This document shows, one piece after another, positions 13,290-36,237 of a stretch of DNA of 38,386 nt. The DNA is from Patescibacteria group bacterium (GTDB lineage: Bacteria; Patescibacteriota; WWE3; UBA101185; UBA10185), in NCBI GenBank assembly GCA_018825365.1, contig JAHJEV010000003.1:68284-106669 (forward strand). Reading direction: 5' to 3'. Position numbers and translations under genes: made by a program. The notes beneath the pieces are model-generated. The model made no database searches. It saw nothing but the letters and a program-made list of their open reading frames with translations, and was not told where the DNA came from. How positions within the stretch are numbered: position 1 is the first letter of the stretch; each line of letters opens with the position of its first letter.

Positions 13290-13293
13290 TTTT

Positions 13294-17696: not shown

Positions 17697-17698
17697 GC

Positions 17699-20353: not shown

Positions 20354-20375
20354 ATTTTCGCTGTCTTAAACCGAA

Positions 20376-20415: not shown

Positions 20416-20481
20416 ATCTACTTAGTCCATTGCTCTGACCGAGTTTTTCCCGGATTAAATACCTCACATAACTTATAGTAC

Positions 20482-20575
20482 TTGACACATTGGCCCTTTG
20501 TTGTTATAATAACGATATCTAGGGCGTATTGCCCTGTAGCCTGTGGCTTATTGCCACGTTCAAAAGGAGAAAGAA
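20482..20575 (+). promoter_or_regulatory. Consensus sigma70 promoter and structured 5' leader
   Basis: TTGACA-17 nt-TATAAT; twin hairpins AGGGC-GTATT-GCCCT and GTGGC-TTATT-GCCAC; SD AAAAGGAG. Confidence 0.75.
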
Positions 20576-21157: not shown

Positions 21158-21169
21158 TAAGTAGTAGCG

Positions 21170-21208
21170 AGGCCCTCATTTGTGAAAGTTATGCAAATGG
21201 GGGCTTTT
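21170..21208 (+). terminator. Intrinsic terminator
   Basis: GGCCCTCATTTG...CAAATGGGGGCT stem followed by TTT, between convergent genes. Confidence 0.75.
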
Positions 21209-21219
21209 AATTGGTTAGT

Positions 21220-21435
21220 TTATTCGATAGGTTGCGTTCCTGATGGAACAAACCCACCTGGGAAAGACCCAGATCTTCTCATACCGTTTGCCGGTCTTCC
21301 CTGTAAGTTTCCTCTCATTCTTTGAAAGTTTCGTGCGGTATTCATTCTTTCGAAATATCTTCCGCTATAAAACCCTAACACTAAGGAAACAGCTGCAGCA
21401 CCTATAATTGAGATTATGAATGTTTTTTTATCCAT
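21220..21435 (-). CDS. Small single-TM protein, last gene of a decayed efflux operon
   Basis: SD AAGGAGG; TM helix followed by an R/G/N/M-rich tail. Confidence 0.7.
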   Translation of the reverse strand: MDKKTFIISIIGAAAVSLVLGFYSGRYFERMNTARNFQRMRGNLQGRPANGMRRSGSFPGGFVPSGTQPIE

Positions 21436-21459
21436 AAATCCTCCTTTTAAATTTAATAA

Positions 21460-21752
21460 TTATTCATACCTCAGAGCCTCGATTGGTTGAAGTTTTGAAG
21501 CTTTTTGGGCAGGATACCACCCAAAAACTATTCCGATTATCGAAGAAACTACTACCGCAGGTCCGATTGAGCTTACAGCCAATACACTTGGAAGTTTCAT
21601 TATATGTGTAAGTATAAGTGAGGCTCCGACACCAATTACCACGCCCACTACCCCTCCGGTTACCGTTAGGATTATTGATTCTACTAAAAACTGAGTAATG
21701 ATCGATTTTCTTTTTGCACCAAGTGCTTTTCTAAGTCCAATCTCGCTTGTTC
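21460..21752 (-). pseudogene. C-terminal fragment of a MacB/FtsX ABC permease
   Basis: TSEIGLRKALGAKRKSIITQFLVES...GWYPAQKASKLQPIEALRYE; the N-terminal part is missing. Confidence 0.9.
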
Positions 21753-21812
21753 CAAACCTCCTTTAATAGCATTTGCGATTTTGTGTTCATCCTCAACGAT
21801 TAGTATTTTCAT
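21746..21812 (-). pseudogene. N-terminal fragment (22 codons) of an OmpR-family response regulator
   Basis: MKILIVEDEHKIANAIKGGLEQ, then reads out of frame into the permease remnant and stops at 21684. Confidence 0.85.
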
Positions 21813-21879
21813 TAAGGCATATTATATTCTGAATGCTGAAAAATTTCTGAAAAGTAATCGTGTGTGTTATTCGGTCTAT

Positions 21880-22305
21880 TTATTTTGCGAAGGTTGTGTT
21901 TAATTCTATTTTTGAAATACGTTTTTCGTGGTTATCTAGTTTATTCTTAAGAGAGACCTTTTCCTGTCTGTACGATAAAACTTCGCCCATCATCTTATCT
22001 ACGCTGTTATAAAGTTTAGGAAGTAGCTTTATTGTTTCACCTATATCTCCTAACTTGGATTGAATTTTTATATCATTTATTTGCAGATTTGATATTCTGT
22101 TGTCCATACTATCCAGTCGCTTGTCTACCCCATCTAATCTGTTGTCCATACTACTTAGCCGCTCATCTACACCGTCTAGTCTATTAGTCAATCTTTTGTC
22201 CATGTTAACTAATTTTCCATCTAGATTAGCAAGTCTTTTGTTTATTGGTTCTAAATCATTTTTCATAGCTAGTTGTAAATTATCATTGTGGAACTTACAT
22301 TTCAA
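21880..22305 (-). CDS. Heptad-repeat coiled-coil protein
   Basis: RLDGVDERLSSMDN repeats; C-terminal LDNHEKRISKIE. Start uncertain. Confidence 0.7.
   Translation of the reverse strand: MKCKFHNDNLQLAMKNDLEPINKRLANLDGKLVNMDKRLTNRLDGVDERLSSMDNRLDGVDKRLDSMDNRISNLQINDIKIQSKLGDIGETIKLLPKLYNSVDKMMGEVLSYRQEKVSLKNKLDNHEKRISKIELNTTFAK
22097..22180. repeat. 42-bp intragenic tandem repeat (2 copies)
   Basis: CTGTTGTCCATACTA at 22097 and 22139; encodes the 14-aa double heptad. Confidence 0.8.
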
Positions 22306-22440
22306 TATGAATAAATATGAAAATAGACAATTGATATTTTATGATCGTCTACAGCATTGGATGTTGGCAACTTCTTACGTGTAAAAACCTTGATAATATT
22401 TCGTCTTGCACATATAAGCATGTGCATGGAGAAATAGTAT

Positions 22441-22635
22441 ATGGAAAATCGCTCAAAAGTAGACAAATTAACAATGCCTTACTATGTACGCCAAAATCTA
22501 GAACTGATCTTAAGTTCTAATAGATGTACCTTGGACTATAGAATATCCAGATTAATAGCAGACGGCACCCTGGAAAAAATAAAACCCGTATTTTATCTTC
22601 AAAGGCAACCAGGAATTAGTAAATATGTCTTTTGA
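22441..22635 (+). pseudogene. Truncated AbiEi-like wHTH fragment
   Basis: RQNLELIL...TLDYRISRLIADGTLEKIKPVFYL resembles the AbiEi N-terminal wHTH; the ORF ends soon after. Confidence 0.5.
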
Positions 22636-22705
22636 AGCTATCGAACTACCCGAATACGCTGATGTTACGGTAAGTAGTGGTGACTTTGAATATTGGTTTT
22701 TAAAA

Positions 22706-22782
22706 TGGTCGGGGTGGCGCGACTCGAACGCGCGACCTCACGGTCCCAAACCGTGCGCTCTAGCCAACTGAGCTACACCCCG
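22706..22782 (-). tRNA. tRNA-Pro(TGG)
   Basis: CGGGGTG acceptor, CACGG-TT-TGG-GA-CCGTG anticodon arm, GTTCGAGTC, ACCA. Confidence 0.97.
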
Positions 22783-22828
22783 AGGAAGTTTCGTAATTCT
22801 ACCCTAAAAACCTATGCTTCTCCACATC

Positions 22829-23515
22829 TCAAAGGTTTTGGATCCATCCGCTTAGATTTAGATCAAACGTTTTGCTTTTGTATATATACCTTTTGTTATG
22901 CATCAAATCCACCATGTGAAGCTTTATAGCGTACGTACAAACTGAGGTAATTGGGCACACTGGAATGGTTTCATCCTTTTTGCTAATATCTCTGGACCAT
23001 TCTGTGATTACAAAAACATCATTGTCCAGCCAATAGGCTCTGTCAAAGTAGCAGTTTCCTCTTTCGGAGCAATCAAGAATTCTCGCATCCAGGATTTTAT
23101 CTTCTTTTAAGCCGTATAGATGTACCTGATTTGGAAAGTAGCCATCCTTATAAGTATTTCTATAGTCCAAATACATAGTTCCGCTTGGTGCGAAAACAAC
23201 CTTTAAAATATCTTTGTGGTCTAGCAAATTTTGATCAAATGCTGCTTTAACTTGGGGATCGTCAATGGACGTGATTTTTATCCACTGGCTGTTGTAAACC
23301 TCATTTTCTTCAACAAGACTAAAATCTTCCGGTGTGATCTGAAGGCCCTTGTTTCTGATGTTGGTGTTCCATCTTTGAAAATCTCTTTCGTTTTCAACTT
23401 TTAAGGGAATCTTTGTTTGGTCAATAGCTTTCTTTTTGACTTCGTTTTGGTAAACCCCAAGTGCTACCGAACAAAATATAACTGCGATAAGAAAAACGTT
23501 AACGAATTTTTTCAT
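22829..23515 (-). CDS. Membrane-anchored exported hypothetical protein
   Basis: ATG 23515 (TATCAT 6 nt upstream); N-terminal TM; two Cys pairs. Confidence 0.75.
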   Translation of the reverse strand: MKKFVNVFLIAVIFCSVALGVYQNEVKKKAIDQTKIPLKVENERDFQRWNTNIRNKGLQITPEDFSLVEENEVYNSQWIKITSIDDPQVKAAFDQNLLDHKDILKVVFAPSGTMYLDYRNTYKDGYFPNQVHLYGLKEDKILDARILDCSERGNCYFDRAYWLDNDVFVITEWSRDISKKDETIPVCPITSVCTYAIKLHMVDLMHNKRYIYKSKTFDLNLSGWIQNL

Positions 23516-23603
23516 AGATGTATGATACCGCGATTTTACCATCAACTGTTATAGGAAAGTGAGTTAGTTGGTGGTCGTGAGAAGGTAAAGTTTGTAGAAA
23601 AAT

Positions 23604-23650
23604 AAAAACCGTAGAATTTCACTCGCTTTCGCAAAGTGTCTACGGTTTTA
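23604..23650 (-). terminator. Intrinsic terminator
   Basis: AAAACCGTAGA/TCTACGGTTTT inverted repeat just after the 91-aa gene. Confidence 0.8.
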
Positions 23651-23659
23651 TGCTTGAAC

Positions 23660-23935
23660 TTAGCTACCTTCAAGCCAGGTATGTACTCGTTGTGTGCGGT
23701 GGACGGTGAAGGTTTCTATTAAAGCCCTATCCCGAAGGAAAACGATGAACGCCGATTGATCAGCAAGACTTTTATCTGAAAGACACACATCGGTATCACG
23801 TCCATCCGCACTAATGTTAAATAAGCTGCGGTTTGTACTTTCTGCATCCTGGTAAGCCCACCAAGCTGCAATAGCTTTGCAGGCATCACCAAAATCTGGA
23901 AAGTGAAGGTACTTTTTAGGCAATTTGTTAGCCAT
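23660..23935 (-). CDS. Orphan small protein
   Basis: 91 aa; SD AAAAAAGGAG; upstream TTGACA-17 nt-TATACA; own terminator. Confidence 0.7.
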   Translation of the reverse strand: MANKLPKKYLHFPDFGDACKAIAAWWAYQDAESTNRSLFNISADGRDTDVCLSDKSLADQSAFIVFLRDRALIETFTVHRTQRVHTWLEGS

Positions 23936-24138
23936 TCTCTACTCCTTTTTTAGATATGGGCACCTGATTTTTGGTGCGGGACTAATGATTATTACGTCCA
24001 TGTATACTATTCATTTGTTGATTTGTCAATTTAGATCAACACTCTATTAATGGTTGTTCTTGTGGATAGTATGAAGTTAAACATTAAACACTCTACGTCT
24101 CACTTAAGCTGTAATATAATAGGTGAATACTTAAGGTT

Positions 24139-25716
24139 ATGAAAAATCTAAAAACAAAATTTCCTATGATTGAGATTGCCGCACTTTTATTGTTGATTGC
24201 GTTTTTCCCACTTATTGCAAAAGTAAATTTTATGCAAAATGATGATTGGAACAGGACCACCAGTGTTGCTCGTTTCCTAAATGGAGATTTTAAACTTTTG
24301 GACGTCACCGCAACAACTTTTTATACGCAGGGAGTACTTGGTTTGTTTTTTGCTTTGATTTTCGGATTAAAGAAACTCCCCCTTTTGACTCTAATTGTTT
24401 CGGTTTTGGATTTTTATGTTTTTGCAAGAATTCTTTTTGATCATTTTAATCTCTCAAGATTCAAGTCTTCCTTAGTTTCTTTAGTTTTGTTTTTTACGCC
24501 TCTTCATATGTATTCTGCGATCGGGTTTATGACCGAGAACTACGTTATGCTCTTCATGCTTTTGTCTTTATACTTTTTCCTTTCATATGAAAAGAAACCG
24601 AAATGGTCACAATTTATATTGTTTAACATCTCAGGATTTTTGGCCTTCTTTGCAAAGCAAAGCGGACTTTTGATAAATGCAGCCGCATTTTTATACTTTT
24701 TGCTTAAGAAAAAATACAAAGAAGCCTTGATCCAACTTGGTTTTTTGGTCGTATTGCTTGGTTACTACTCTTTCTTCTTTCCAAAGACTGATGAAATGGG
24801 CGACAAGGGGTTTATAAGAGGAATTAGAATAAGTCATCTGCTTGATGTTGGTTACGCTTATTCAATAGTGTATGGGATGTTACTTGTTGCCGCCTCTTTT
24901 GCGCTTCCGATTGTTATTTATTTTGTGGTTTCTACATTTTTTAATGTTAGAAAATCGAAATTGACCATAGCGGGACTTTTAATATCTGCTATTTGTTTGT
25001 TTTTTCTTTTAAACAAAATTTACGATCCGGGAAAAATATCGTGGGCCGAGTATCCATATTTTGAAAACACTTTCGAAAGAACGGGATTTTTTCCGAGATC
25101 TGTTCTTGGAACCAAATATCAATTTAGAGGTAATTACAAACTATTTACCTATTGGGATTTGACGTCTAAAGTTTTTTTGGCTTTAGCAATTCCTTGTCTT
25201 TATGTTTACGGGAGAAAAATTATAAACATCTACTCAATATCTATAGCCGGTTACTGCGTGCTGATGATTTTTGTGAAAGTCTTTTTTGACAGATACACTC
25301 TTCCGGTAATTCCCCTTTTTATCTTGTTTTTGCTTTGTTTAAGAGTTCCAGATACGAAGCCTCTTTTAACCGAGAAGTTTTTTCCATTTGTTGTTGGATC
25401 TTTTGTTTTAGTTATGGCATTTGTTTCAACCCAACTTGCAATAGATTTTGTTTTATCAAACAACTACATTTGGGGTAAAAGTGAGCAGCTTGTAAGCACT
25501 GGTGTCAAACCGGAAAAGATAAGAGCAACAACATCTTGGGGAAAGCTTTATGGTCTTTGTTGGCAAGGAGGGTGCAGATATCTTTTCTCTTACGACACGC
25601 TTGAGAAAAACCCTTCTTTAAAAGTTGATTATGTTTTGGATGATGAAAAAGATTTAAGTTTTCCAGGAAGTATTTTTATAAAACCGAAAGTTTATCTATA
25701 TAAAAGGGTGCTTTAA
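24139..25716 (+). CDS. GT-C fold glycosyltransferase (PMT/ArnT, GT39-like)
   Basis: NDDW after the first TM, FMTE, AKQ and DRYTLP motifs; polytopic membrane protein. Confidence 0.8.
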   Translation: MKNLKTKFPMIEIAALLLLIAFFPLIAKVNFMQNDDWNRTTSVARFLNGDFKLLDVTATTFYTQGVLGLFFALIFGLKKLPLLTLIVSVLDFYVFARILFDHFNLSRFKSSLVSLVLFFTPLHMYSAIGFMTENYVMLFMLLSLYFFLSYEKKPKWSQFILFNISGFLAFFAKQSGLLINAAAFLYFLLKKKYKEALIQLGFLVVLLGYYSFFFPKTDEMGDKGFIRGIRISHLLDVGYAYSIVYGMLLVAASFALPIVIYFVVSTFFNVRKSKLTIAGLLISAICLFFLLNKIYDPGKISWAEYPYFENTFERTGFFPRSVLGTKYQFRGNYKLFTYWDLTSKVFLALAIPCLYVYGRKIINIYSISIAGYCVLMIFVKVFFDRYTLPVIPLFILFLLCLRVPDTKPLLTEKFFPFVVGSFVLVMAFVSTQLAIDFVLSNNYIWGKSEQLVSTGVKPEKIRATTSWGKLYGLCWQGGCRYLFSYDTLEKNPSLKVDYVLDDEKDLSFPGSIFIKPKVYLYKRVL

Positions 25717-25718
25717 TA

Positions 25719-25751
25719 TCCGTGGTTTGTGAGGTTAGGAAGTGTTTTGTA
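25719..25751 (+). repeat. Direct repeat (second family), left copy
   Basis: TCCGTGGTTTGTGAGGTTAGGAAGTGTTTTGTA matches 26432-26467 with one 3-nt gap. Confidence 0.7.
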
Positions 25752-25754
25752 TGG

Positions 25755-25806
25755 AAAGAAGTGGGTAACTCAAGTAGCAGTTAGCTAGCTAAAGTTACCC
25801 TCTTTT
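25755..25806 (-). terminator. Intrinsic terminator-like hairpin
   Basis: GGGTAACT/AGTTACCC stem with purine-rich and T-rich flanks, between convergent genes. Confidence 0.6.
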
Positions 25807-25824
25807 GGTTAGGACAGCGAGAAA

Positions 25825-26286
25825 TTATGGACAGCGGCCCGTACGGAACAGCTCCAGTGAAGGTTTTCCCTCCTCCACATAAGAGTCATAGAGATAAAGG
25901 AGTGAAAAGGCTCGCTTTGAGAACTTTTTTTCCATTTTGGCCAAACCGCCCTTCTTTAGTCGGTGGAACTCTTCGTTTGTAAGGATAATTGTGAAGAGTG
26001 TGTTGACTGCGGCGGCAATGTTGATAAGTTCAATCAGAGGTTTCCAGTTCCCTTTAAACTCCCGTTGAAACGTATCGTCTGCCGAAATTACCACCCGAGC
26101 GGTAAGAGCCCCCTCTTTCGAGGCTGCGTTTTCTTCCACCTCAGGAAAGTACCCTTTAGGCACAGTCACGGTGACCAGGCTTCCAGCTGGTAGTTTAACG
26201 GGTTTGCCATTTCGAAGTTCGCTCTCGTCCACGTCAAGTGCGTAGATATTCCCTCTCCAGGGATACTGAAAGTAGGTAACTTCCAT
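25825..26286 (-). CDS. Orphan soluble protein
   Basis: ATG 26286 after SD AAAAAGGAGAG; upstream TTGACT-17 nt-TACAAT. Confidence 0.72.
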   Translation of the reverse strand: MEVTYFQYPWRGNIYALDVDESELRNGKPVKLPAGSLVTVTVPKGYFPEVEENAASKEGALTARVVISADDTFQREFKGNWKPLIELINIAAAVNTLFTIILTNEEFHRLKKGGLAKMEKKFSKRAFSLLYLYDSYVEEGKPSLELFRTGRCP

Positions 26287-26431
26287 TGTTCTCTCCTTTT
26301 TGTCTGATTTTGAATTTCTCGTGGTGATTGTATTGTAGATAGTGGTTAAAGTCAAGTACTACAGGGTAATAATATGGCTACGAAATATTGGTTCAACGGG
26401 TTGTTGATTAACCTTGTCAATGCTTTGGCTC

Positions 26432-26467
26432 TCCGTAGTTTGTGATGAGGTTCGAAAGTGTTTTATA
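26432..26467 (+). repeat. Direct repeat (second family), right copy
   Basis: TCCGTAGTTTGTGATGAGGTTCGAAAGTGTTTTATA. Confidence 0.7.
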
Positions 26468-26540
26468 AACTGGAAAGCCACTCCTTTTAACACCAAATAT
26501 AAGCTAATTTGTTTATTAGTAAAACCTGTCCCTCCAAATG

Positions 26541-27206
26541 TTATTTGTTAAATAATTTAGCTACCCAGCCGAATAAACTGAATTTACTTTCATTTTGAGT
26601 AACAAAGTTACTAATATTTGTCTGTTCCTGCTCAAGTGCTGTGATTTGATTTTGCAATATCGTCTTATCTTCCTCAATTGTTGCTCTTTCAACTAATCCT
26701 TTAAGTTGGTCTACTCTATTTCTAGTTTTTACCATCTCACTTCTGAGGCCCCCAAGATTTTTATAGTCCGATCCGATAAGGAAAGTCTTTATCTTGCTTC
26801 TGCCCTCAACCGCATTAAGTTTTTCGGAAACCTTAGTCTTGGAATCATTCTGTTGCTGTGCAATTACTCTAACTTGCTCCCCAATGCCACCTTCTCTATC
26901 AGCTACGGTTAGAAGGTTTTGAACAAAGGTTGCTACTACGCTTCTGTGAGTAGCGGCGGTTTCCTGACCTTTCCTTTCTTTTACTATGCTTTTCTTGTTA
27001 CTATTTTGGTTCTGCTCGTCTGACAGGCTATTTTGATTTTGATTATTCGCATTCCCAGTTTCTTTTCCTTTTGAATTCTGGGCCTCTATCGCTTGTCCTG
27101 ATTTAGGGGCGGCTAGTACTCTTACAAAAGAGGAAGGAACAGCAAAAACTAGAAAAGAAGATACTGCTACTAATGCTGTTAGCATCTTTGTGTTTTGTTT
27201 TTTCAT
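26541..27206 (-). CDS. Secreted coiled-coil hypothetical protein
   Basis: Signal peptide, N/Q-rich linker, HRSVVATFVQNLL...GGIGEQVR...FLIGSDYKNLG...FSLFGW. Confidence 0.75.
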   Translation of the reverse strand: MKKQNTKMLTALVAVSSFLVFAVPSSFVRVLAAPKSGQAIEAQNSKGKETGNANNQNQNSLSDEQNQNSNKKSIVKERKGQETAATHRSVVATFVQNLLTVADREGGIGEQVRVIAQQQNDSKTKVSEKLNAVEGRSKIKTFLIGSDYKNLGGLRSEMVKTRNRVDQLKGLVERATIEEDKTILQNQITALEQEQTNISNFVTQNESKFSLFGWVAKLFNK

Positions 27207-27242
27207 GTTATTAGCATAGCATAAATCTTGTCAACGTATAAC

Positions 27243-28820
27243 TCATTTTAGTGTATTCGAAACAACTCTAGGTTCGAATCTATATATTACGGTAACAACC
27301 TTATTGTTTTGTACAAAAGAGTAAATAAGTTTCCTTGATCCGTAATTTATAAAGCGATAATCCATAACAAAATTCATCGGCCGTTTTATTCCGATGGCAT
27401 AAAAACCTCCCTCTACCCCATATTTTGTGTCCATATATTTTTCGCCTATACTCTTATCCTCATTAGTTATGTATTTGAAATTTTCATTATTAGTTTGATT
27501 CAGATTATTTACCAAGTCATTCACTTCATTCCAAAATCGGTGATGAGTAAAACCAAAAAGCGGTATGTAGGAGCCTCTCATATACTCCGGTTTTATTTCT
27601 TTTATTCCTTTTGCAACTAGATTAATGATATCTTTCTTTGGCCTAAGGTAATTTTTTACCTTTAGTGTTTTATTTACGAATGGATATTCCACTGAATGAT
27701 CAACATATAAAACGTATGTTTGGAAATACAAGAAAGAGACTAACACAAGAATAATCGGGGCATAAAGTATTTTTGTTACTATATGTAAGTTAATGATTGA
27801 TCCTAATCCAATTCCGGCCAGAATAATTAGAGGTAATAGGAAGTTATAGAAGTGGGTACCTGGATTTTTTACAAATATTTCAAAAAATCCAAATACGACC
27901 CCAAACCATATTAGCATTGGAAAACTTTTTTTAATGCTGATTAAACCTACGACTGCTGATATGAGCAGCAGAGGTAATGTGAGAAATGGATTATATAGTT
28001 CTGTTAGCGCTTTATATAAAGGTATTTTTGAGTATCCCAAATCAAGTCCTATTCTAGCTGTGGCGTACGTTAGGTTCCTTTCATAGAAACTGAAGGTAAC
28101 AGTGTACGGAATGATGTAAGGCAGTGTAATAGCAAGACCAAGTGTAATATTTAAAAGCAATACTTTAATAGTAGCTTTCCTGTTTTCTTTACCCTTTAGA
28201 AAAGACTTAGTGATAATAAACATAACTATTGGGGCAACTAGTATGGCATCCCAATGTGAAAGAACCGATAAACACCAAAAGAAGGTTCCCAAAAGGCTGA
28301 TTTTGAGGCTCCTTTTATCAGAAAGGGGTTGATCAATAATTTTTGAATACAGATAAAGGGCAATAAAAGAAAAAAGGAGGTTAAGATTTTGATACTGAGC
28401 TATTCTTCCAAATCCCGAAATGAAACCATTAGTAATAAAAAGAAGAGATGACAAGAAAGCCATTAATTTACTTTTAGTAATGTTTTTTACAAATAAGAAA
28501 AAGAAAACAATCGATAGTGTTGAGGCGATGCTAAACGGAAGTCTTTCAGCGGTCTCGTTGAGAAAGTTCCCGGTAAAAAGATACGGAATATATGAAACGA
28601 TAAACTGCATCGGGCCTTTTCTTTGTCTCAATAAAAAATTCCAAGCAGTCTCACCATTATTAAGACTTAGGAACGCTTTGTATTCGTCACCGTGATAGTC
28701 CGAGTAACCGAGATTTTTAAATCTTAGGGGTATCGCGAGTGAAACCAAAATAGCTATCAAAAAAATTGTAGATTTGTTTCTTTTAAAATAATCAAAGAGT
28801 TTAGATATTAATTTTTTCAT
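27243..28820 (-). CDS. GT-C fold glycosyltransferase (ArnT/GT39-like)
   Basis: GDE after the first TM, KGP, ERLP, GRIAQY, SHW. Start ATG 28820 overlaps the upstream stop (ATGA). Confidence 0.8.
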   Translation of the reverse strand: MKKLISKLFDYFKRNKSTIFLIAILVSLAIPLRFKNLGYSDYHGDEYKAFLSLNNGETAWNFLLRQRKGPMQFIVSYIPYLFTGNFLNETAERLPFSIASTLSIVFFFLFVKNITKSKLMAFLSSLLFITNGFISGFGRIAQYQNLNLLFSFIALYLYSKIIDQPLSDKRSLKISLLGTFFWCLSVLSHWDAILVAPIVMFIITKSFLKGKENRKATIKVLLLNITLGLAITLPYIIPYTVTFSFYERNLTYATARIGLDLGYSKIPLYKALTELYNPFLTLPLLLISAVVGLISIKKSFPMLIWFGVVFGFFEIFVKNPGTHFYNFLLPLIILAGIGLGSIINLHIVTKILYAPIILVLVSFLYFQTYVLYVDHSVEYPFVNKTLKVKNYLRPKKDIINLVAKGIKEIKPEYMRGSYIPLFGFTHHRFWNEVNDLVNNLNQTNNENFKYITNEDKSIGEKYMDTKYGVEGGFYAIGIKRPMNFVMDYRFINYGSRKLIYSFVQNNKVVTVIYRFEPRVVSNTLK

Positions 28821-29929
28821 GGGTGCCATACGTGAAAACCATCTTCCCACTGTTTTAAGTACCAAAAGCAGAATATCCAATAAAGTATATTTGGTAAATA
28901 ATACAAAATCTGTTTTTTGTATTTTTGCGAGATTTCAAAAGTTGCCAATAGGAAAATTGGTACAAACCAAGTCAAATAGGTTCTGTTCAAAACCGGGGTA
29001 AATATAAGGAAATTCAAAGCTGAAAGAGAAGCTAAAGTGTATTTGTTTTTAATCTTGAATAAAAAGTAACCCGCTAAGATTAAAACCCACCCGAAAAACG
29101 TGGCAAGTTTGTTGTAAACAGATAGCGGAATGATCTGAAATAACTCAATTTTATAAAAATAACTAATGTAAAAAAGAAAAGGTCTGCCCTGCAACACTCT
29201 ATTTGAATGAACAAGTAGTGTACCGTTAAGGTAAGTCGTTATTTCCTTAAGCCCCAAAATAAAAGGAATGGAAACAATGATAAAAATAATTCCACAGGCT
29301 AAAACAAATTGGTACCACTTTTTTGATTTGATAAGAAATAGTGGGAGAAAAATTAAAGCAATAGGTTTAAATATCACCGAAAGTGTGAAAAAGGATGCGG
29401 TCAAAACATCGTCTTTTTCAAGATAGATTAAAGACAGAAGTATAAAAAATACAGGTATCGGATCAACTAAAGAGTAGCCGCTTCTCGCTGCCATATAGGG
29501 GTTAAAAATCCATGCGGTAAGCGCAAAAAGCCCAGCAAAGTAGTTTTTCTTGTAAAGGTGTTTAAAAAGAATTATTGCAACTCCCAAGTCGCATAACAAA
29601 ACCGGTATTTTCCAAAGTATGTAATAGGGAATTTGTGTGACAGGTGCTAAAGCGTACAAAAAAGTAAAAAGATATAAAAATCCCGGAAAATATGCGTATC
29701 CGTGTCCACCAATGTCACCTGCGTTTTTATATGATTCGATCGTTTGTTGATAGAGATTTCCACCACTTAGAAGTGTTTCGATAGCCGAAATATAAGTTCT
29801 ATAATCTTTTCCTGACTCAGGAAAATCTAATACCCGCTTAAATGTTCCACAAGCTAAAACTAGGATAACAGCAGATATTTTTAAGTATTTCAATAGAGGT
29901 TTTGATAAGAAAGATCTTAGGATGTTCAT
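28817..29929 (-). CDS. GT-C glycosyltransferase (GT87/DUF2029-like)
   Basis: D after TM1, YAYFPG, KIPVLLCD, FNP, DPIP, FKP motifs. Confidence 0.75.
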   Translation of the reverse strand: MNILRSFLSKPLLKYLKISAVILVLACGTFKRVLDFPESGKDYRTYISAIETLLSGGNLYQQTIESYKNAGDIGGHGYAYFPGFLYLFTFLYALAPVTQIPYYILWKIPVLLCDLGVAIILFKHLYKKNYFAGLFALTAWIFNPYMAARSGYSLVDPIPVFFILLSLIYLEKDDVLTASFFTLSVIFKPIALIFLPLFLIKSKKWYQFVLACGIIFIIVSIPFILGLKEITTYLNGTLLVHSNRVLQGRPFLFYISYFYKIELFQIIPLSVYNKLATFFGWVLILAGYFLFKIKNKYTLASLSALNFLIFTPVLNRTYLTWFVPIFLLATFEISQKYKKQILYYLPNILYWIFCFWYLKQWEDGFHVWHP

Positions 29930-30051
29930 ATGACGATGATACTACAGGAAATTAACACTATAAAGTGTTATGAGCGTTTCCACTAACATTAGGATTTACG
30001 CTTTCATCATTAAGTTTTTGTGAAGTAAGTCTTTTAGAATGTCCGTAAAAG

Positions 30052-30825
30052 TTATATAGCGAAATAATCTGCCGTCGATTTAATTATTAGTCTGTTTGTT
30101 TCAACTCGTTTGTTTATATCGTTTTTTCCGGGGGTTTCGGTGCACGCGCATTTGGGTACACCCCGACTAAACATAAAATCTTCAAAAGTTCCGTCGTGCT
30201 CATTAAACGAAAGACCATCTTTGATGATGCTGCCTTCAATTTCGCAATCCTTTATTATTTGAAATTGTTGTGTTCCAACATCAAGTAAAGTTTGTGTAAA
30301 CTTCCCGGGAGTCTTCGAGTTCTCAAATGTATATAGATAAAACCCATCCTTTTCCGCTGGTTCTTCGTGCAATGAAATAAAACAGTCCTTTGCGCAGGAT
30401 AGCAACAAGTCGAGGTTATTCATCAAAATCAGTCCCTCCTTGGATAATGGTTCTGTGCTAGGAGGACAAAACCCCAAAGCTGCGTTTTCCCCATATTTAT
30501 TATATGGACAGCCGACCGCAAATCCAGTTGGATTCACTAAAGGCAGAAAAGAAATGTTTGCTTGTTTAGTTGCGTTTTCTTTTTCTGTTTTCAGAAATTT
30601 CAAAATCCCCCAACAACCAGCAGGTTCTTCCCCATGGAAACCACCTGCTATTAAAATATGCGGCTTACTTTTGTGAGCACGTTTGGGCGACAGAAGCGTT
30701 ATCGGGTATTTATCAACCATTCCCAAACAAGTATTTTTATAACCCGCGCTTTCGCTAACATCGCTTTGTATTGTCAGAAAAGTATCAATATCGAATGGTT
30801 TTGTTATATTATTTAGGTTCTGCAT
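30052..30825 (-). CDS. M14-family metallocarboxypeptidase / succinylglutamate desuccinylase-like protein
   Basis: GGFHGEEPAG, VNPTG, ISLHE, TETP. Confidence 0.85.
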   Translation of the reverse strand: MQNLNNITKPFDIDTFLTIQSDVSESAGYKNTCLGMVDKYPITLLSPKRAHKSKPHILIAGGFHGEEPAGCWGILKFLKTEKENATKQANISFLPLVNPTGFAVGCPYNKYGENAALGFCPPSTEPLSKEGLILMNNLDLLLSCAKDCFISLHEEPAEKDGFYLYTFENSKTPGKFTQTLLDVGTQQFQIIKDCEIEGSIIKDGLSFNEHDGTFEDFMFSRGVPKCACTETPGKNDINKRVETNRLIIKSTADYFAI

Positions 30826-30853
30826 GTAGCTACGATATTACAGGAAATTTGCA

Positions 30854-31924
30854 CTATAAAGCACTAGAGGCGTTTCCACTATCGTCATTAAGTTTTCGTG
30901 CAATAAGTCTTTTTAGAATGTCTGTAAATGGTATCCCATATAAGCCTTCAATAATAAGGCCAATTGCTGTATCTAATTTCTTTGGGCCAAATGCTGGATT
31001 TAGATTTACATCTATAAAATAAAATCTTCCTGAGGCGTCCTGTCTCACATCGAATTTTCCGTAATCTTCCATTCTTGTTATCTCAAAAGCTTTTCTGGCA
31101 AATTCCTTAAGATTGGCATCTTCGTATTTCTGATATGTGTATGCTTGATCTTCAGGTTTCTTATCTGCTTCTGTCCACTGATCCTCAAAGGTTGCGATTT
31201 TATATTTCTGGCCAGGTTTATTAAATATCTTTTCAGCCATATATGTTTTAATGTTTAAACCTTGAAGCATATACACAACTATTTCTCTTCCCGCGATATA
31301 CTCTTCAACTAAAACCGATTGTTTGTATGTTTTGATAAGAAACTCCATGCGTTCTCTAAGCTCTTTCTCGTTCTCTGAGATTGCTTTATTTGATATTTCT
31401 ACCGCTCCGTGTATTTCGTTTAGTTTTGAAATTAATGGAAATCTCAAATTTATATCTAGGGGTTCGTGCGAGGTGTTGAAAAGCTGAAAATTTGGAACGG
31501 GAACACCTGAGTTTTGTAAAAGTTTTTTAGTTAAAAACTTATTGTAACAAAGAGCAAGTCCCAAAAGCCCCGCACCTGTATATGGTATGTCCATCATATC
31601 CAGAATTCCGGGAATGGTTGAGGATAGGTAGTCGTTCCCTTTTATGGAATCGACAAGATTAAAAATCATTCCGGGCCTGTTTCTTAAAATAGATGAAGCT
31701 AGTGTTTCGTTTCCGGGGTAAAGAAAAACCTGACACCCAAGTTTTTTAATTTCCTCTGCAATTATAGTTGCGTCGCTTAACGCATCCTTCTCTGTAATGT
31801 AGTGCTGTTCGGTTGAGAAGTACTCTCTTTTGACATCGCTATACACAACACCAATTTTTGGTGTCTCACTAAGTTTACTTAAGTCTGGGGGCTCCTTTGT
31901 CGAAACCGCGTCTGTACTCATCAA
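30854..31924 (-). CDS. D-Ala-D-Ala ligase-like ATP-grasp enzyme
   Basis: IPYTG, NKFLTKKLL, VLVEEYIAGRE, YGKFDVR, FIDVNLNP; lacks the canonical Ddl GGxSxE N-terminal motif. Confidence 0.85.
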   Translation of the reverse strand: MMSTDAVSTKEPPDLSKLSETPKIGVVYSDVKREYFSTEQHYITEKDALSDATIIAEEIKKLGCQVFLYPGNETLASSILRNRPGMIFNLVDSIKGNDYLSSTIPGILDMMDIPYTGAGLLGLALCYNKFLTKKLLQNSGVPVPNFQLFNTSHEPLDINLRFPLISKLNEIHGAVEISNKAISENEKELRERMEFLIKTYKQSVLVEEYIAGREIVVYMLQGLNIKTYMAEKIFNKPGQKYKIATFEDQWTEADKKPEDQAYTYQKYEDANLKEFARKAFEITRMEDYGKFDVRQDASGRFYFIDVNLNPAFGPKKLDTAIGLIIEGLYGIPFTDILKRLIARKLNDDSGNASSAL

Positions 31925-31987
31925 GTAAAAATTATAGACATAATGTTGGAAATGTTAATAGGTAATATCCGAATATTTATAACTGAA

Positions 31988-32941
31988 TTACACACGAACA
32001 AGTGTTAATGAGTATAAGTAAAGTCCCATCAGCAACAGTAATATGACACCAACAGATTTAGGCACCGTGATGTTTTTAAAGATTTTAACAATACTAAAAA
32101 TTGTTAAGGTGGCAAAAGCAAACCAAATCCAGTCTGTTACAAATAAGTCGACCGCTTGTGAGAAAAATGCGGATATTCCCCCAATGATCGTTAGATTATA
32201 TATGTTGCTTCCAATTATATTGCCTAAAGTTAGTTTCTCTTCGTTTTCGTTTTGGCTGAATATTGTTGTTAATAATTCTGGCAGTGATGTGGCTATTGCA
32301 GTTAAAGAAAGTCCCAGAATAGCAGTACTATAGCCGGAAAGTTCCGAGAGGCTTTCGGTAGATTTTACAATTAATATCCCACCCAACATGATTCCAATTA
32401 ATGAAAGAAAAAGAGTCAGTAGACTAATGAGTGTAAAGTTCCTACCTTCGTTTTGTTGTTTACGGACCCGGAATGCATCTTCGTGAGACCCTCCCTCTAC
32501 GCCCCATTTGTATTCCAAAAATGTAACCAAAATACCCAAACCTATTAGCAAAATTCCGGAAAAAAAGGAGTTGATCTTAAAAACATATAGAATAAAAAAT
32601 ACAACTGATATTATCGCTAAAGCAGTGATTGTTCTTTGTGTCTTTGTCGTTCCTATCCTCAGTTTTCCTATTAAAATTCCGATGGGTAGTACTAATAAAA
32701 CGTTAGAAATATTAGACCCGATTATATTTCCTATAGCCAGACCATAATCATTGCTAATCGCAGCAGTTGCAGATACAGCAAGTTCCGGAAGAGATGTCCC
32801 CAACGCCACAATCGTAATTCCGGTTATTAATGGGGAGATGCGCAGTTTGTTGGCCAGTAGTTTTGAAAGCTTTACTAAAAGGCTGGTGCTTGGTAATAGA
32901 ACCAATAGTCCCAAAATAAAAATCATGGACTGAATTGCCAT
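31988..32941 (-). CDS. Calcium/sodium antiporter (YrbG/CaCA family)
   Basis: Two alpha repeats GTSLPE / ATSLPE, each followed by GNIIGSNI. Confidence 0.93.
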   Translation of the reverse strand: MAIQSMIFILGLLVLLPSTSLLVKLSKLLANKLRISPLITGITIVALGTSLPELAVSATAAISNDYGLAIGNIIGSNISNVLLVLPIGILIGKLRIGTTKTQRTITALAIISVVFFILYVFKINSFFSGILLIGLGILVTFLEYKWGVEGGSHEDAFRVRKQQNEGRNFTLISLLTLFLSLIGIMLGGILIVKSTESLSELSGYSTAILGLSLTAIATSLPELLTTIFSQNENEEKLTLGNIIGSNIYNLTIIGGISAFFSQAVDLFVTDWIWFAFATLTIFSIVKIFKNITVPKSVGVILLLLMGLYLYSLTLVRV

Positions 32942-33069
32942 AGTCTAATTATACATATTTTATAAACAGCGACTTATGAAAGGGAATTGGGTTACATTGA
33001 TTGAGTAGAAAAATGTGTTAAATGAATAAACCGTTTTGCATTTCGCTGACTATTTTGTACGATTACCTT

Positions 33070-33510
33070 ATGAATACTAAAAAACAATTCGAAAATATAG
33101 TTGTGTTTTCCGCATCGACTCGTACATCTCTTGAGGCAGCAAAACAACTAGGATGTGAGGTAGCACAAATAGCCAAATCTATAGTGTTTCGCGGATCAAA
33201 AACCGGAAAACCGGTTTTAGTAATAGCTTGCGGTAACCACCGTATCGATGAGAAAAAGGTGGCTGCACTTATTGGCGAGGGTGTTGAGAAAGCTGACGCT
33301 AACTACTGTAGGGAAAAAACCGGTTTTGTCATTGGAGGAATTCCTCCCTATGGGCATCCGACTAAAATTCAAACACTTTTTGATGAGTCTTTGTTTCAGT
33401 ATGACGTTATCTGGGCGGCTGCGGGCACTCCTAATTCAGTATTTCAAACGATCCCGAGTGAACTTATGGAAAAAACATTGGCAACATGTGCTGATGTGGC
33501 ATTAGAGTGA
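33070..33510 (+). CDS. YbaK/EbsC aminoacyl-tRNA deacylase family protein
   Basis: QIAKSIVF, TGFVIGGIPPYG, WAAAG. ATG 33070 (TACGAT 6 nt upstream). Confidence 0.92.
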   Translation: MNTKKQFENIVVFSASTRTSLEAAKQLGCEVAQIAKSIVFRGSKTGKPVLVIACGNHRIDEKKVAALIGEGVEKADANYCREKTGFVIGGIPPYGHPTKIQTLFDESLFQYDVIWAAAGTPNSVFQTIPSELMEKTLATCADVALE

Positions 33511-33563
33511 GTAGATGAGTTGAATAATCAGGAAACAATACTAATGTGCTTCCAAATTAGTAT

Positions 33564-33592
33564 TGGTGGACCGAGTGTCAGGATGTGCAAAC
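33564..33592 (+). repeat. 29-bp cassette-boundary motif, copy F
   Basis: TGGTGGACCGAGTGTCAGGATGTGCAAAC. Confidence 0.85.
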
Positions 33593-33636
33593 TATGTATA
33601 TCATCAGAACATCAATAGAAGATGTAAAATAAACGT

Positions 33637-34551
33637 GTGGAAACTCTTGAAGAAAAATTAAAGCGCGTTAAATTAGTTTTTAATATTGACGAAGTTATAA
33701 GCAGACGTACAAACCTGGATGATATTAAAAATTATTATAGGGTTAATATAATCCCCTATTTTCTTTTTCATAATAAACGAGACTTCGTTCATAATGGTAT
33801 ATCTAGAGGCAAAAGATATTCGGATAAAGATGTATATGAACAGCCCAAAATAGTAGAAAAATATATAAGAGAGATGGGTGCAAAAAGGTGTTTAGAATTA
33901 GCGACTGGAAAAGGAGCCTCAAGTTTTTATTTAGCAGAAATATTTCCCAACGTAAAATTCTTTGCTATTAATCTTGCTGACGGACAGTTAGAGATTGCTA
34001 AAAAGAAAGCCCGTCGAGTAGATAACTTCTTCCCAGAAGAAGGAGACTACCACGATTTAGGCAATTACCATGATAACGACTTTGATATAGTATTTGTGTT
34101 TGAGGCTCTTTGCCACAGCAATGACAAGGGAAAAGTCGCAAAGCAGGTATACAGACTGTTAAAGCAAGGTGGTTTGTTTATAGTCATTGATGGTTACTTA
34201 AATAAACCGTTAGGTGAACTTAGCGAAACCGAATTGTTAGCAAAAAAGCTTTCGGAAAGGGGGATAGTAGTAGAAAAATTCGAATTATATGACGATGTTA
34301 AGAAAGACATCGTTACAAAAGGTTTTCAAGTAATATATGAAAAGAATGCTTCTCTCTTGGTCCTACCTTCCTTGTATAGATTTGAGAAACTATCTCATGA
34401 AGTGCTTTTTAGAATTCCTTTGTTTGGAAAAATGATAGTCAAATTACTACCAAGAGATTTTGTTAATAACGCTTTGTCAGGTTACTTAATGCCCACTTTA
34501 ATCCAAACTAAAGTAGCTTGCTATTGCATCACTGTTTTTGAAAAGGTTTAG
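33637..34551 (+). CDS. Class I SAM-dependent methyltransferase (small-molecule/lipid type)
   Basis: CLELATGKG, GDYHDL, FDIVFVFEALCH, LKQGGLFIVID. Confidence 0.88.
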   Translation: METLEEKLKRVKLVFNIDEVISRRTNLDDIKNYYRVNIIPYFLFHNKRDFVHNGISRGKRYSDKDVYEQPKIVEKYIREMGAKRCLELATGKGASSFYLAEIFPNVKFFAINLADGQLEIAKKKARRVDNFFPEEGDYHDLGNYHDNDFDIVFVFEALCHSNDKGKVAKQVYRLLKQGGLFIVIDGYLNKPLGELSETELLAKKLSERGIVVEKFELYDDVKKDIVTKGFQVIYEKNASLLVLPSLYRFEKLSHEVLFRIPLFGKMIVKLLPRDFVNNALSGYLMPTLIQTKVACYCITVFEKV

Positions 34552-34586
34552 TGTTGTAATTATGTCGTTATGATAACCAAAAGTCG

Positions 34587-34615
34587 TGGTGGATCATCTG
34601 TCAGGATGTGCGAAC
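34587..34615 (+). repeat. 29-bp cassette-boundary motif, copy G, with extended left arm
   Basis: TGGTGGATCATCTGTCAGGATGTGCGAAC preceded by GTCGTTATGATAACCAAAAGTCG. Confidence 0.9.
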
Positions 34616-34662
34616 TGAGGTAAAGTTTCTGAAATGCTGGTAAGAAAAAATCTGCGTTACTG

Positions 34663-35805
34663 TTACTCTGGAATATTTAAGGCATCTCTAGTTTTGGGGT
34701 TCTTGATTCCTTTTCTACCCGCATCCACTCCGTGGGCATTGATACATCTATCAATATAGAAAAATAGATTTTCTAAAGTGCCCTCGTAAAGTTGGACACC
34801 TTCCTCATGCATGAGTTTCTTTCCAATAACAAGTGCTCGTGCCCAGGCATTACGTTCATGGAGAGCCGTAACAGTCGCTTGAAACTCGTCGCTTTCTTTA
34901 CTAAGACGATCGGCCACGACCTTTAGCTCACTTTTTACGCATTTCGAGATACCGTCCTGCGCTGTGTCCTGCCTATTTGCCTCAGTATGAGCATAGATTT
35001 CTCTTAGAATGTTTCGTGCCTGCTCATTCAACATATTTTCAAAATCAGCTAGCGAAACCCCCGTGGCCTCAACCCGACGGTTTAACGGATAATTAGCGTG
35101 CGCGGAAAGAGTTGTTTCAATAGAAATAAATTCATGTGTTTTCACTTCCAACAGATTATTTAGTCTTTCCTCAACTTGGGGATTTTTGTAATCTGGGTTT
35201 AAGCCGACAAAAGAGCCCAAACTATCTGAGTTTACATTAAGAAATAATTGTAATGCGCGGAACTGCTCTGAAATCAAACTCTCCTGTTGTCGTTCTTTGG
35301 CGTTTTCTACGTAATCCCATGCGTGTCCTATCTCATGTAATATAGCCAAAGAAGAATCTTTAGTCTCGCCAACTAACAAACCCGTTACCCCCTTTTCTTT
35401 AGCTACTGGCAAACCGATAATGTGCTCCATATCGAAGTAATAAGGACTCAATCCTTCACATTCGTTTATAGATTTAGGGTCCCCGTCCACACTAAGTACG
35501 CCAAGAAAAGTAACTCCACTCGGTAAATACTGGTTCAGGTTCACGTCTTTTATGTAGACCGAAAGCGCCTCTCCTACTCCGCCATGAATTTTTGCGCGGT
35601 CAACATAATGTCCAGCCTCTAGCGTAGCTTTACAATCATTCCAAAAATTTGTCATTAGCTGTTGGATTTTGGGAGCATCATATACCTCTCTACCAATGGA
35701 GTGGCGACTTTCGTTTTCTGCCAATATTTGTAACTCTTCATGTGTCATTTCATATTTCGAGTCGGTACCCATCTGCGTCGAAGGGAAAGTTGTTTCAGAG
35801 GTCAT
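34663..35805 (-). CDS. Hypothetical protein with zincin-like HEXXH motif
   Basis: AILHEIGHAW and distal HERNAWARAL. Confidence 0.65.
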   Translation of the reverse strand: MTSETTFPSTQMGTDSKYEMTHEELQILAENESRHSIGREVYDAPKIQQLMTNFWNDCKATLEAGHYVDRAKIHGGVGEALSVYIKDVNLNQYLPSGVTFLGVLSVDGDPKSINECEGLSPYYFDMEHIIGLPVAKEKGVTGLLVGETKDSSLAILHEIGHAWDYVENAKERQQESLISEQFRALQLFLNVNSDSLGSFVGLNPDYKNPQVEERLNNLLEVKTHEFISIETTLSAHANYPLNRRVEATGVSLADFENMLNEQARNILREIYAHTEANRQDTAQDGISKCVKSELKVVADRLSKESDEFQATVTALHERNAWARALVIGKKLMHEEGVQLYEGTLENLFFYIDRCINAHGVDAGRKGIKNPKTRDALNIPE

Positions 35806-35898
35806 AATTGCATTTTAGCATTGAAATTGGTGAAAAGTGCAACTCCTTCTTGTTCTTGGGTTTGCCGAAAGCGGAGTTGTTATAACAACCAAAAAGCG

Positions 35899-35984
35899 TG
35901 GTGGGCGAGGAGGGAGTCGAACCCTCATCAGCCGAAGCTGACGACATTTTAAGTGTCGCGTGTATGCCATTCCACCACTCGCCC
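35899..35984 (-). tRNA. tRNA-Leu(TAA)
   Basis: GGGCGAG/CTCGCCC acceptor, CGACA-CT-TAA-AA-TGTCG anticodon arm, long variable arm, ACCA. Confidence 0.97.
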
Positions 35985-36064
35985 GAATAATTAGAAACTA
36001 TCACATATTAGCAAATTTCAAAGAATAAGAAAAACCTTGTGAAGCGAGTTGAAAAATATTTTAA

Positions 36065-36140
36065 TGGCGCGCCTGGGGGGAATTGAACCTCCGACCTTTT
36101 CCTTAGAAGGGAACTGCTCTATCCGCTGAGCTACAGGCGC
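36065..36140 (-). tRNA. tRNA-Arg(TCT)
   Basis: GCGCCTG/CAGGCGC acceptor, GTTCC-CT-TCT-AA-GGAAA anticodon arm, GCCA. Confidence 0.93.
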
Positions 36141-36237
36141 AGACATAGTCAATTGTATTAGATTTTAGCGCACAATACAGGTTTTGTCACAGGGGTACCC
36201 TTAGCTTTAAAAGAAGCCGTGTTTTATTATTTCTTTG

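Follow-up and report, generated by a model that had tools for sequence, protein, structure and literature searches.

Candidate mobile gene cassettes bordered by a 29-nt site at tRNA 3' ends in WWE3 Patescibacteria

A stretch of 38,386 nt from the genome of a Patescibacteria group bacterium of the WWE3 lineage (contig JAHJEV010000003.1, positions 68,284 to 106,669; here called the window) contains two arrays of short gene cassettes. The cassettes are separated by copies of a 29- to 30-nt site, and each array lies 3' of a tRNA-Leu gene. The site is restricted to arrays 3' of tRNAs with a particular 3' end, cassettes are replaced and re-ordered at the junctions, and no recombinase is linked to the arrays. 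We propose, with a probability of about 70%, that this is an integron-like or dif-module-like cassette system that docks at tRNA 3' ends and is served by a recombinase in trans. The array at tRNA-Leu(taa) would then consist of two mobile cassettes, each with one gene and one site copy, that were docked at the tRNA 3' end by site-specific recombination. The phenomenon itself is well supported and belongs with the site-specific cassette arrays.

The window corresponds to G000:C3:68284-106669, where G000 is the host genome (732 kb in 4 contigs, 95% complete, 38% GC; window 37.6% GC). It was compared with the 85 other genomes of its family (86 in total, 51 genera) and, as an outgroup, with 24 relatives that belong to the same class but to other families. 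In addition, 50 site copies were surveyed in 31 loci. These loci were picked around site hits or tRNA-Leu(taa), and the sample is therefore not unbiased.

Two single-gene cassettes at tRNA-Leu(taa)

The left border of the array at tRNA-Leu(taa), termed array 2, is a gene with a YbaK-type aminoacyl-tRNA editing domain (33022-33510, plus strand; Pfam tRNA_edit, E 2e-28), which scored 57 bits with NCBIfam YbaK_EbsC, below the cut-off of 153. It is followed by the distal site copy TGGTGGACCGAGTGTCAGGATGTGCAAACT (33564-33593; nhmmer 27.6 bits, E 1.6e-6), written here on the plus strand and with its tRNA-like sense on the minus strand like tRNA-Leu(taa). At position 7 this copy has an A, and its positions 9-12 read CGAG. 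Cassette 1 (33594-34586, 993 bp, 33.3% GC) contains one gene on the plus strand for a class-I S-adenosylmethionine (SAM) methyltransferase (33637-34551; Pfam Methyltransf_31/11/25, E 5e-17). The right end of cassette 1 (34566-34586, GTTATGATAACCAAAAGTCG; repeat families D3 and D14) resembles the sequence abutting both tRNA-Leu 3' ends.

The proximal site copy TGGTGGATCATCTGTCAGGATGTGCGAACT (34587-34616, plus strand; nhmmer 36.5 bits, E 2.6e-9) separates cassette 1 from cassette 2 (34617-35898, 1282 bp, 41.8% GC). The single gene of cassette 2 is on the minus strand and encodes a protein of 380 amino acids with an invariant HExxH motif (34663-35805). The right end of this cassette (35877-35898) has the palindrome GTTGTTATAACAAC and an A-run. 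The array is anchored proximally by tRNA-Leu(taa) (35899-35984, minus strand; ARAGORN and Rfam, 58.1 bits), whose 3' end CTCGCCCACCA reads TGGTGGGCGAG on the plus strand. The two cassettes are unlike in their GC content, with the window between them. Promoter-like and terminator-like sites in 33400-36200 were near expectation (8 vs 6.9 and 2 vs 2.3, respectively).

A preliminary description of the window had placed a lone methyltransferase gene between the two site copies, a lone HEXXH gene between the proximal copy and the tRNA, and ybaK beyond; this layout was confirmed in all points. The same holds for its statements that both tRNA-Leu genes end in CTCGCCCACCA and that the array at tRNA-Leu(taa) replicates the first array, array 1, at tRNA-Leu(tag).

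Cassette content and order change at the site copies

A contig of 1363 nt from a groundwater metagenome of a different study (X5) is collinear with the window up to position 33593 and again from 35899. The first of these positions is the last base of the distal site and the second is the first base of the tRNA 3' end. Between them, 1002 other bases replace 2305 bases of G000. The ybaK-type gene forms the left border of the array also in this strain. The surrounding genes were about 99% identical, the ybaK stretch only about 91% (133 differing letters over 31988-33497). The metagenome runs were compared as contigs only, and cover gaps of X4 and X5 over about 33600-35500 were not counted as evidence. 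From X5, only the contig that bridges the gap was used; joints with sides below 30 nt (27886>36240, 31548>35899 and others) were set aside as probable tRNA cross-matches.

The second case was found in array 1, where the cassettes are named A to E from the distal end. The closest relative, G013, has 90-97% identity across the window core. Its cassettes D and E, which travel as a pair (window 9817-14226; 89.7% over 4423 nt), run into TGGTGGGC and are followed by a site copy and the left end of cassette B (window 6443-6628, 92.5%); in G000, the end of cassette E leads into tRNA-Leu(tag). Only TGGTGGGC is common to the tRNA junction of G000 and the site junction of G013. The right end of cassette B in G013 is 95% identical up to 8360 and continues into a different cassette of about 950 bp, which is followed at the array end by a further site copy, 60 nt and tRNA-Tyr(gta). 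The order is therefore A-B-C-D-E-tRNA-Leu(tag) in G000 and D-E-B-new-tRNA-Tyr in G013, provided that the two contigs of G013 join through B. Taken together, cassette content and order change exactly at the sites.

The conserved site and its likeness to a tRNA 3' end

The consensus of the site is TGGTGGGCCATCTGTCAGGATGTGCGAAC, with a length of 29-30 nt. The 30-nt pattern gave 4 matches in the window, where 0.00 were expected from 100 shuffles. An nhmmer profile built from 40 distinct copies found 6 full copies in the 732-kb genome, all inside the two arrays of the window. The profile also found two partial copies, the right half of a site at window position 13312 and a copy at C3:61253, 580 bp downstream of tRNA-Val(gac). 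No copy was detected with the profile in 14301-33563, nor beside tRNA-Pro, tRNA-Arg or tRNA-Gly, in line with the earlier statement that full copies are lacking there.

With up to 3 mismatches, the site occurs in 27 of the 86 family genomes including G000 (26 of the 85 others), which represent 15 of the 51 genera. A reversed pattern used as a control gave no hit. None of the 24 relatives outside the family has the site with up to 2 mismatches. When one genome per species was scanned with the exact pattern, only 15 stretches were obtained, all from metagenome-assembled genomes (MAGs) labelled candidate division WWE3, Patescibacteria or with similar names. A scan of metagenomes added 21 further stretches of the same layout with up to five copies per contig.

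The conservation is limited to 29-31 nt in the 40 distinct copies (TGGTGGGCCAT(c/t)TGT(C/G)AGGATGTGCGAACT). The flanks are not conserved, and the left flanks often have a hairpin and an A- or T-run. The left part of the site repeats the final 8 nt of the target tRNAs (TGGTGGGC, i.e. GCCCACCA), and the right part of about 21 nt is specific to the cassettes (CATCTGTCAGGATGTGCGAAC). Read in the tRNA sense, the site begins with GTTCG and ends with GGCCCACCA and therefore resembles a tRNA 3' end. In an alignment with tRNA-Leu, only TGGTGGGC and CGAAC are common (8 + 5 nt) and the site is 5 nt longer. Of the 49 tRNAs of the genome, tRNA-Val(cac) matches the site best: 23 of 24 positions agree, and there are two 3-nt insertions. 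Overall, the site looks like a tRNA 3' end that may have been disabled by small insertions.

A conserved single-strand fold was not observed, as the four folds of the array-2 copies were all within the range of shuffled sequences (z -0.52 to +0.49). Among eight folds only the copy at 9817 was exceptional, on both strands and owing to its flanks. Rfam matches were limited to the true tRNAs, and the site copies gave none. In our own reading, the site may be divided as 11-6-11 (GGTGGGCCATC|TGTCAG|GATGTGCGAAC) with an inner CATC/GATG symmetry.

Probable docking at tRNA 3' ends

An upstream tRNA is present in the locus for 34 of the 50 surveyed copies, and all 34 copies lie downstream of the tRNA and in its orientation. 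The other 16 copies are on contigs that end before any tRNA. Among the 34 copies, the tRNA ends in GCCCACCA for 29 (Leu-taa, Leu-tag and Ile-gat), in TCCCACCA for 4 (Tyr-gta) and in CTCCACCA for 1 (Phe-gaa, with a degenerate site). In one metagenome contig, a variant site was found behind tRNA-Ala(cgc); it begins with TGGTGGACCGT and thus matches the end of this tRNA for 11 nt. In G000, 5 of the 49 tRNAs end in GCCCACCA, and a copy is found downstream of three of them (Leu-tag, Leu-taa and Val-gac) versus none of the 44 others. By a hand calculation, the chance of such a split is about 5 in 10,000. The remaining two, Val-tac and Leu-aag, are members of a dense tRNA operon and have this end yet no site. 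In G000, GGCACCA is the 3' end of Leu(cag) and Leu(caa), neither of which has a site.

The preliminary description had proposed that the system targets the acceptor end of tRNA-Leu. The acceptor end is indeed where the cassettes dock, as the G013 junction with only TGGTGGGC in common indicates, and the same site is present at tRNA-Leu(taa) and tRNA-Leu(tag) of other genera. The restriction to tRNA-Leu did not hold. Judged by the tRNA 3' ends, the target appears to be tRNAs that end in (G/T)CCCACCA, namely Leu(taa), Leu(tag), Ile(gat) and Tyr(gta), with a partial copy at Val(gac) and the variant at Ala(cgc).

Six tRNA-Leu(taa) genes of the same genus (loci L034, L035, L036, L047, L048 and L049) end in GGGCACCA and have no site. 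This acceptor-stem difference within the genus could be an escape from insertion or merely reflect the history of the clade.

A tandem pair of tRNA-Tyr(gta) genes was seen in three sources: L027 (G010:C40) at 7583-7894, L010 (G013:C26) at 1746-2051 and L114 at 5841-6152. One gene of the pair ends in TCCCACCA and has the array downstream, the other ends in CACCCCA without a clean CCA.

Search for a recombinase

Pfam scans of selected cassette open reading frames (ORFs) detected no recombinase. The four recombinases of G000 were then compared with the collected loci by tblastn, a search that excluded 16 non-array loci; by our own tally, about 70 of the loci bear a site, duplicates included. Only one site-bearing contig was hit (G099:C26, L076 = L101), by a recombinase of the syntenic core. 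The other two hits were both obtained with the serine recombinase, in loci without a site copy.

The genes with the tyrosine recombinase domain PF00589 in G000 are limited to C3:1085-1621 and C3:451739-452215. The window is over 65 kb away from the first of them and over 340 kb away from the second. In G027 and G030, more than 75 kb separates the tyrosine recombinases from the arrays of these genomes. About two such enzymes are found per genome, and they are present in 86 of 86 genomes; one of them is Xer-like, with 250 bits in NCBIfam and thus under the cut-off of 330. A frame for a large serine recombinase with an internal TAA was noticed near the end of contig C3 (G000:C3:458515-458952). 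In G018 (L056, G018:C24), a serine recombinase with 69% identity has a homologue of the array-2 methyltransferase at a distance of about 1 kb.

Proposed mechanism and alternatives

We infer a circular intermediate, a crossover position and an enzyme in the following way. The partners of the reaction would be a circular cassette and either the tRNA end or a site copy already in place, with the exchange inside the common TGGTGGGC or immediately to its right. An intact tRNA would be regenerated proximally and a site copy left distally. Repeated events would stack the cassettes with the newest beside the tRNA, and excision and re-insertion would shuffle them. The recombinase would act in trans, and the candidates are the two family-wide tyrosine recombinases or else a helper element with a large serine recombinase or an integrase. 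In its wider form, the proposal describes a platform of the WWE3 family that is not linked to an integrase, in which (G/T)CCCACCA tRNA ends serve as attI-like docking sites and the 29-nt "disabled tRNA end" as the cassette site, and that has not been described before. For this wider form, we consider the balance to be only slightly favourable. No description of the site or of the layout was found in open-access texts and preprints.

Several observations weigh against the proposal of cassette recombination in trans. No recombinase appears to be tied to the site. The tyrosine recombinases do not discriminate the site-bearing genomes because all genomes of the family have them, and the other associations are loose: by our own counts, a serine recombinase is present in 21 of the 27 site-bearing genomes and in 33 of the 59 others, and Y1_Tnp in 15 of 27 and 16 of 59 (odds ratio about 3.4). 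If the site were the core of a tyrosine recombinase with two arms around TGGTGGGC, its unconserved left flank would be unusual. A circular or empty-site form was not seen in the metagenome contigs, and no exact match of the site was found on viral contigs. Both array-2 copies have an A at position 7 where the tRNA has a G, and they may therefore no longer recombine with the tRNA. The six genomes with the GGGCACCA end are close kin from one genus and count as about one observation rather than as independent ones. Junction pairs that are informative, with one flank common and the other not, number only three, too few to place the exchange. These pairs have 5-7 differences in the half beside the unshared cassette and 3 on the shared side (own count). 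With most differences beside the unshared cassette, the pairs lean to a central exchange, whereas for the tRNA junction the exchange has to be at position 8 or left of it.

Among the alternatives, the best surviving one is that the arrays are passive relics, although we regard it as improbable. Here, islands with integrases would have been inserted in tandem at tRNA 3' ends and lost their integrases, and the site would be a decayed and inactive partial-tRNA att repeat, as in degenerated tycheposons. The position of the arrays 3' of tRNAs and the similarity of the site to a tRNA 3' end, 23 of 24 positions with tRNA-Val(cac), agree with this, as does the degenerate near-full tRNA-Leu(tag) copy at the end of array 1. 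In Prochlorococcus, tandem elements are likewise described as split by partial tRNAs and accompanied by degenerated remnants (10.1101/2020.12.28.424599). However, the site differs from the 3' end of its own tRNA, as the alignment given above indicates. It is near-invariant over 15 genera whereas its flanks are not, which favours constraint over decay. Moreover, Pfam scans and tblastn found no integrase fragment in any array, the units are only 0.06-4.4 kb long and have mostly one gene, and cassettes are replaced and re-ordered between genomes that are 90-99% identical.

A single-strand mechanism of the HUH/Y1 type, similar to IS200/IS605 or to the transposases associated with repetitive extragenic palindromes (REP; RAYT), is a less probable explanation still. 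The insertion would occur directly 3' of CCCACCA and the site would be the element end. G000 has one Y1_Tnp gene (C3:361501-361866, 96 bits), Y1_Tnp is enriched in the site-bearing genomes as counted above, and the unconserved left flank would suit an insertion beside a fixed, short target that needs no second conserved arm. The association is weak, however, because kin are not independent, and 12 site-bearing genomes have no Y1_Tnp, including G091 (1 contig, 99% complete) and G078 (3 contigs). In addition, the site has no conserved single-strand hairpin and no copy is near the Y1 gene.

Least probable of all, the site would have a fixed function, for instance as a tRNA-like signal for processing or termination, and the differences would arise by ordinary homologous recombination or deletion between 29-nt repeats. 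The constant tRNA orientation of the site, its left flanks with hairpin and A- or T-run and the ability of 29-nt direct repeats to support deletions speak for it, but array genes are on both strands, there is no tRNA-like or other conserved fold and Rfam matches only real tRNAs, and deletion can neither yield new cassettes such as the 1002 different bases of X5 nor move a set of cassettes to a different tRNA and change its order.

Comparison with known cassette systems

Integrons are arrays of mostly single-gene cassettes, each with one recombination site, that are stacked at one fixed docking site. Their content and order differ between close strains, and their cargo is diverse, accessory and often related to defence. 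The intI gene adjoins the docking site, and the attC sites, tens of nt long, are imperfect inverted repeats with a fold in the single-stranded form. The WWE3 arrays meet this picture in their stacked cassettes, in a content and order that vary with junctions at the sites, and in their diverse cargo. They differ in that the docking site is a tRNA 3' end with no tyrosine-recombinase gene adjacent, in that the site has 29 nt without inverted repeats or a hairpin of the attC type, and in that the host is a family of ultra-small Patescibacteria. Because the genes are found in both orientations, the WWE3 arrays have no common promoter logic of the Pc type.

The dif modules of Acinetobacter (PMC6449649, PMC13141974, PMC7399989, PMC12907356) and the integrative mobile elements exploiting Xer (IMEX), such as the CTX/TLC arrays at dif, are described as small modules without a recombinase, which have sites of the 28-bp class, are shuffled between replicons and presumably use the host recombinase in trans. 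The WWE3 units are likewise small and without a recombinase, have short sites and presumably depend on a recombinase in trans. In contrast to the dif modules, they dock at a tRNA end and not at dif, and direct repeats account for all copies. In the complete genomes G030 and G091, the array copies are the only ones (2 and 1, with up to 3 mismatches), and the nhmmer profile found none extra in G000. As far as copy number goes, this argues against a simple mimicry of dif. Possible candidates for an action of the Xer type in trans are the two family-wide recombinases, one of them Xer-like but below its cut-off, and a linked recombinase was not found.

The tycheposons of Prochlorococcus are described from streamlined genomes where flexible genes are beside a few tRNAs, newcomers push older elements outward and tRNA-like repeats lie between the units (10.1101/2020.12.28.424599). 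The WWE3 arrays share the tandem arrangement on the 3' side of a tRNA gene, as seen for 34 of the 34 copies with an upstream tRNA. A tycheposon encodes a tyrosine or serine recombinase itself, often together with replication genes, whereas no mobility gene was found in the WWE3 units. The repeats of tycheposons are true partial copies of the island tRNA, and the WWE3 site is a distinct conserved site with 8 + 5 nt in common with its host tRNA. From the REP/RAYT systems, with many dispersed palindromic copies and a flanked RAYT gene, the arrays differ by having 6 full copies in two arrays, no palindrome or hairpin and no site near the Y1_Tnp gene. The layout works like that of integrons, Xer/dif modules and tandem tRNA islands, yet it lacks a defining feature of each.

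The genomes of Patescibacteria are tiny, few mobile elements have been recognised in them, and little is known about how accessory and anti-phage genes come and go. With a 29-nt site and a tRNA end as its sole requirements, the platform would account for the concentration of strain variation beside tRNAs. If this is true, ultra-small genomes exchange single accessory or defence genes among tRNA loci and genera, and a third architecture of cassette exchange with a recombinase in trans would stand beside integrons and Xer/dif modules. The site would also be a simple marker for the flexible gene pool in MAGs; assemblies seem to break in the array regions, since many copies sit on short contigs. 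The platform further predicts an evolution of the acceptor stem, in which a change from GCCC to GGGC may be an escape from insertion.

The array at tRNA-Leu(tag) and the cargo of the cassettes

The far end of array 1 is a degenerate, near-full copy of tRNA-Leu(tag) without CCA (3026-3105; Rfam 33.2 bits), with 97% identity over 69 nt to the true tRNA-Leu(tag). Array 2 has no such pseudo-tRNA. The outermost site copy (3174-3202) adjoins the pseudo-tRNA and is followed by cassette A (3376-6410), which contains an unknown gene and a HerA-like ATPase (4674-6410). Further site copies separate cassette A from B (6443-6471), B (6715-8259, minus strand) from C (8332-8360), and C, which encodes AbiEi/AbiEii (8491-9755), from D (9817-9845). 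All four full copies are on the plus strand and were found by nhmmer. Between cassettes D (9958-13289) and E (13390-14076), only the right part of a site, GATGTGCGAACTA, is present (13307-13328, plus strand; nhmmer 10.8 bits, E 0.33). The proximal anchor is tRNA-Leu(tag) (14219-14301, minus strand; ARAGORN and Rfam).

Beyond the pseudo-tRNA, a restriction-modification pair was observed (window 578-2962), which consists of an N6/N4 DNA methylase (578-1858) and a BstXI-type endonuclease (1862-2962). Together with AbiEi/AbiEii and the HerA-like ATPase, this pair makes the tRNA-Leu(tag) locus a small defence island.

Across the arrays, the cassettes have one gene or a few, and the cargo, on both strands, is diverse and patchy. 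It includes AbiE, a HerA-like ATPase, radical SAM enzymes, a nucleotidyltransferase, a histidine phosphatase, a 2'-5' RNA ligase and many unknowns. In one locus (L027, G010:C40), about 190 nt after tRNA-Leu(tag) (130-309) and after a site 10 kb away (9976-10160) are 81% identical and have a terminator-like hairpin; some cassettes therefore have a common tRNA-proximal end module.

Neither cassette gene of array 2 belongs to the core of the family, in keeping with the preliminary description. The HEXXH protein had no match in any of the 85 other genomes. A full HMMER search among 1.84 billion representatives gave 14 relatives, where a word-indexed search returned the protein itself only. The residues H157, E158, H161 and E317 are invariant. 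The protein matched none of the families of Pfam, NCBIfam and PADLOC. Its AlphaFold model is mostly helical and of good confidence (predicted local distance difference test, pLDDT, 83.9), and Foldseek found no counterpart in the PDB at E <= 0.001 (best 0.52). We therefore class the protein as no more than a putative zinc-dependent hydrolase; its family is very rare. For the methyltransferase, a class-I SAM enzyme of generic type, no NCBIfam equivalog was found, and the match to the mad2 methyltransferase domain was weak. Full-length relatives with 36-49% identity occur in 10 of the 85 genomes (L055-L065). No site copy (up to 9 mismatches) and no tRNA-Leu was detected within about 1.5 kb of them, and there is accordingly no sign that the methyltransferase travels as a cassette elsewhere.

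Neighbouring genes and other features of the genome

The preliminary description had taken ybaK next to tRNA-Leu(taa) as the ancestral layout. At the level of strains, ybaK stands at the left edge of the array also in X5. At the genus level, the proposal is not supported: with the G000 gene as query, ybaK is missing from 12 of the 13 congeners; the single ybaK-like gene among the congeners has 29% identity and is on another contig. The conserved neighbour of tRNA-Leu(taa) in the genus is a gene of 525 amino acids (24139-25716). In G000 it is 10.2 kb away from the tRNA, compared with about 0.7, 1.6 and 3.3 kb in G004, G009 and G003, respectively, and the whole interval is variable. No remnant of the site was detected by nhmmer in 25717-33563.

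Within this interval, adjacent paralogues were noticed in 28817-31924. They contain two repeats, one of 69 nt (29917 and 30813) with 75% identity between its copies and another at 29995 and 30873; both fall among ORFs similar to ATP-grasp enzymes (D-Ala-D-Ala-ligase-like) and to AstE/AspA. The block is variable across the genus and stable between strains.

The small-subunit (SSU) rRNA of G000 scored 1287 bits with the bacterial model versus 934 bits with the archaeal model. ARAGORN and Rfam agree on tRNA-Leu(taa) and on tRNA-Arg(tct) and tRNA-Gly(tcc), which follow it. A search of the whole genome with ARAGORN did not find a tmRNA. Outside the window, the program reported a tRNA with the anticodon tta ("Stop") at C3:121165-121242, tRNA-Ser(act) at C1:23711-23798 and tRNA-Ile(tat) at C3:453951-454026. 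The isoacceptors of G000 include Arg(gcg) and Leu(aag). A tandem duplication of 42 nt with 79% identity (window 22093-22176) adjoins tRNA-Pro(tgg).

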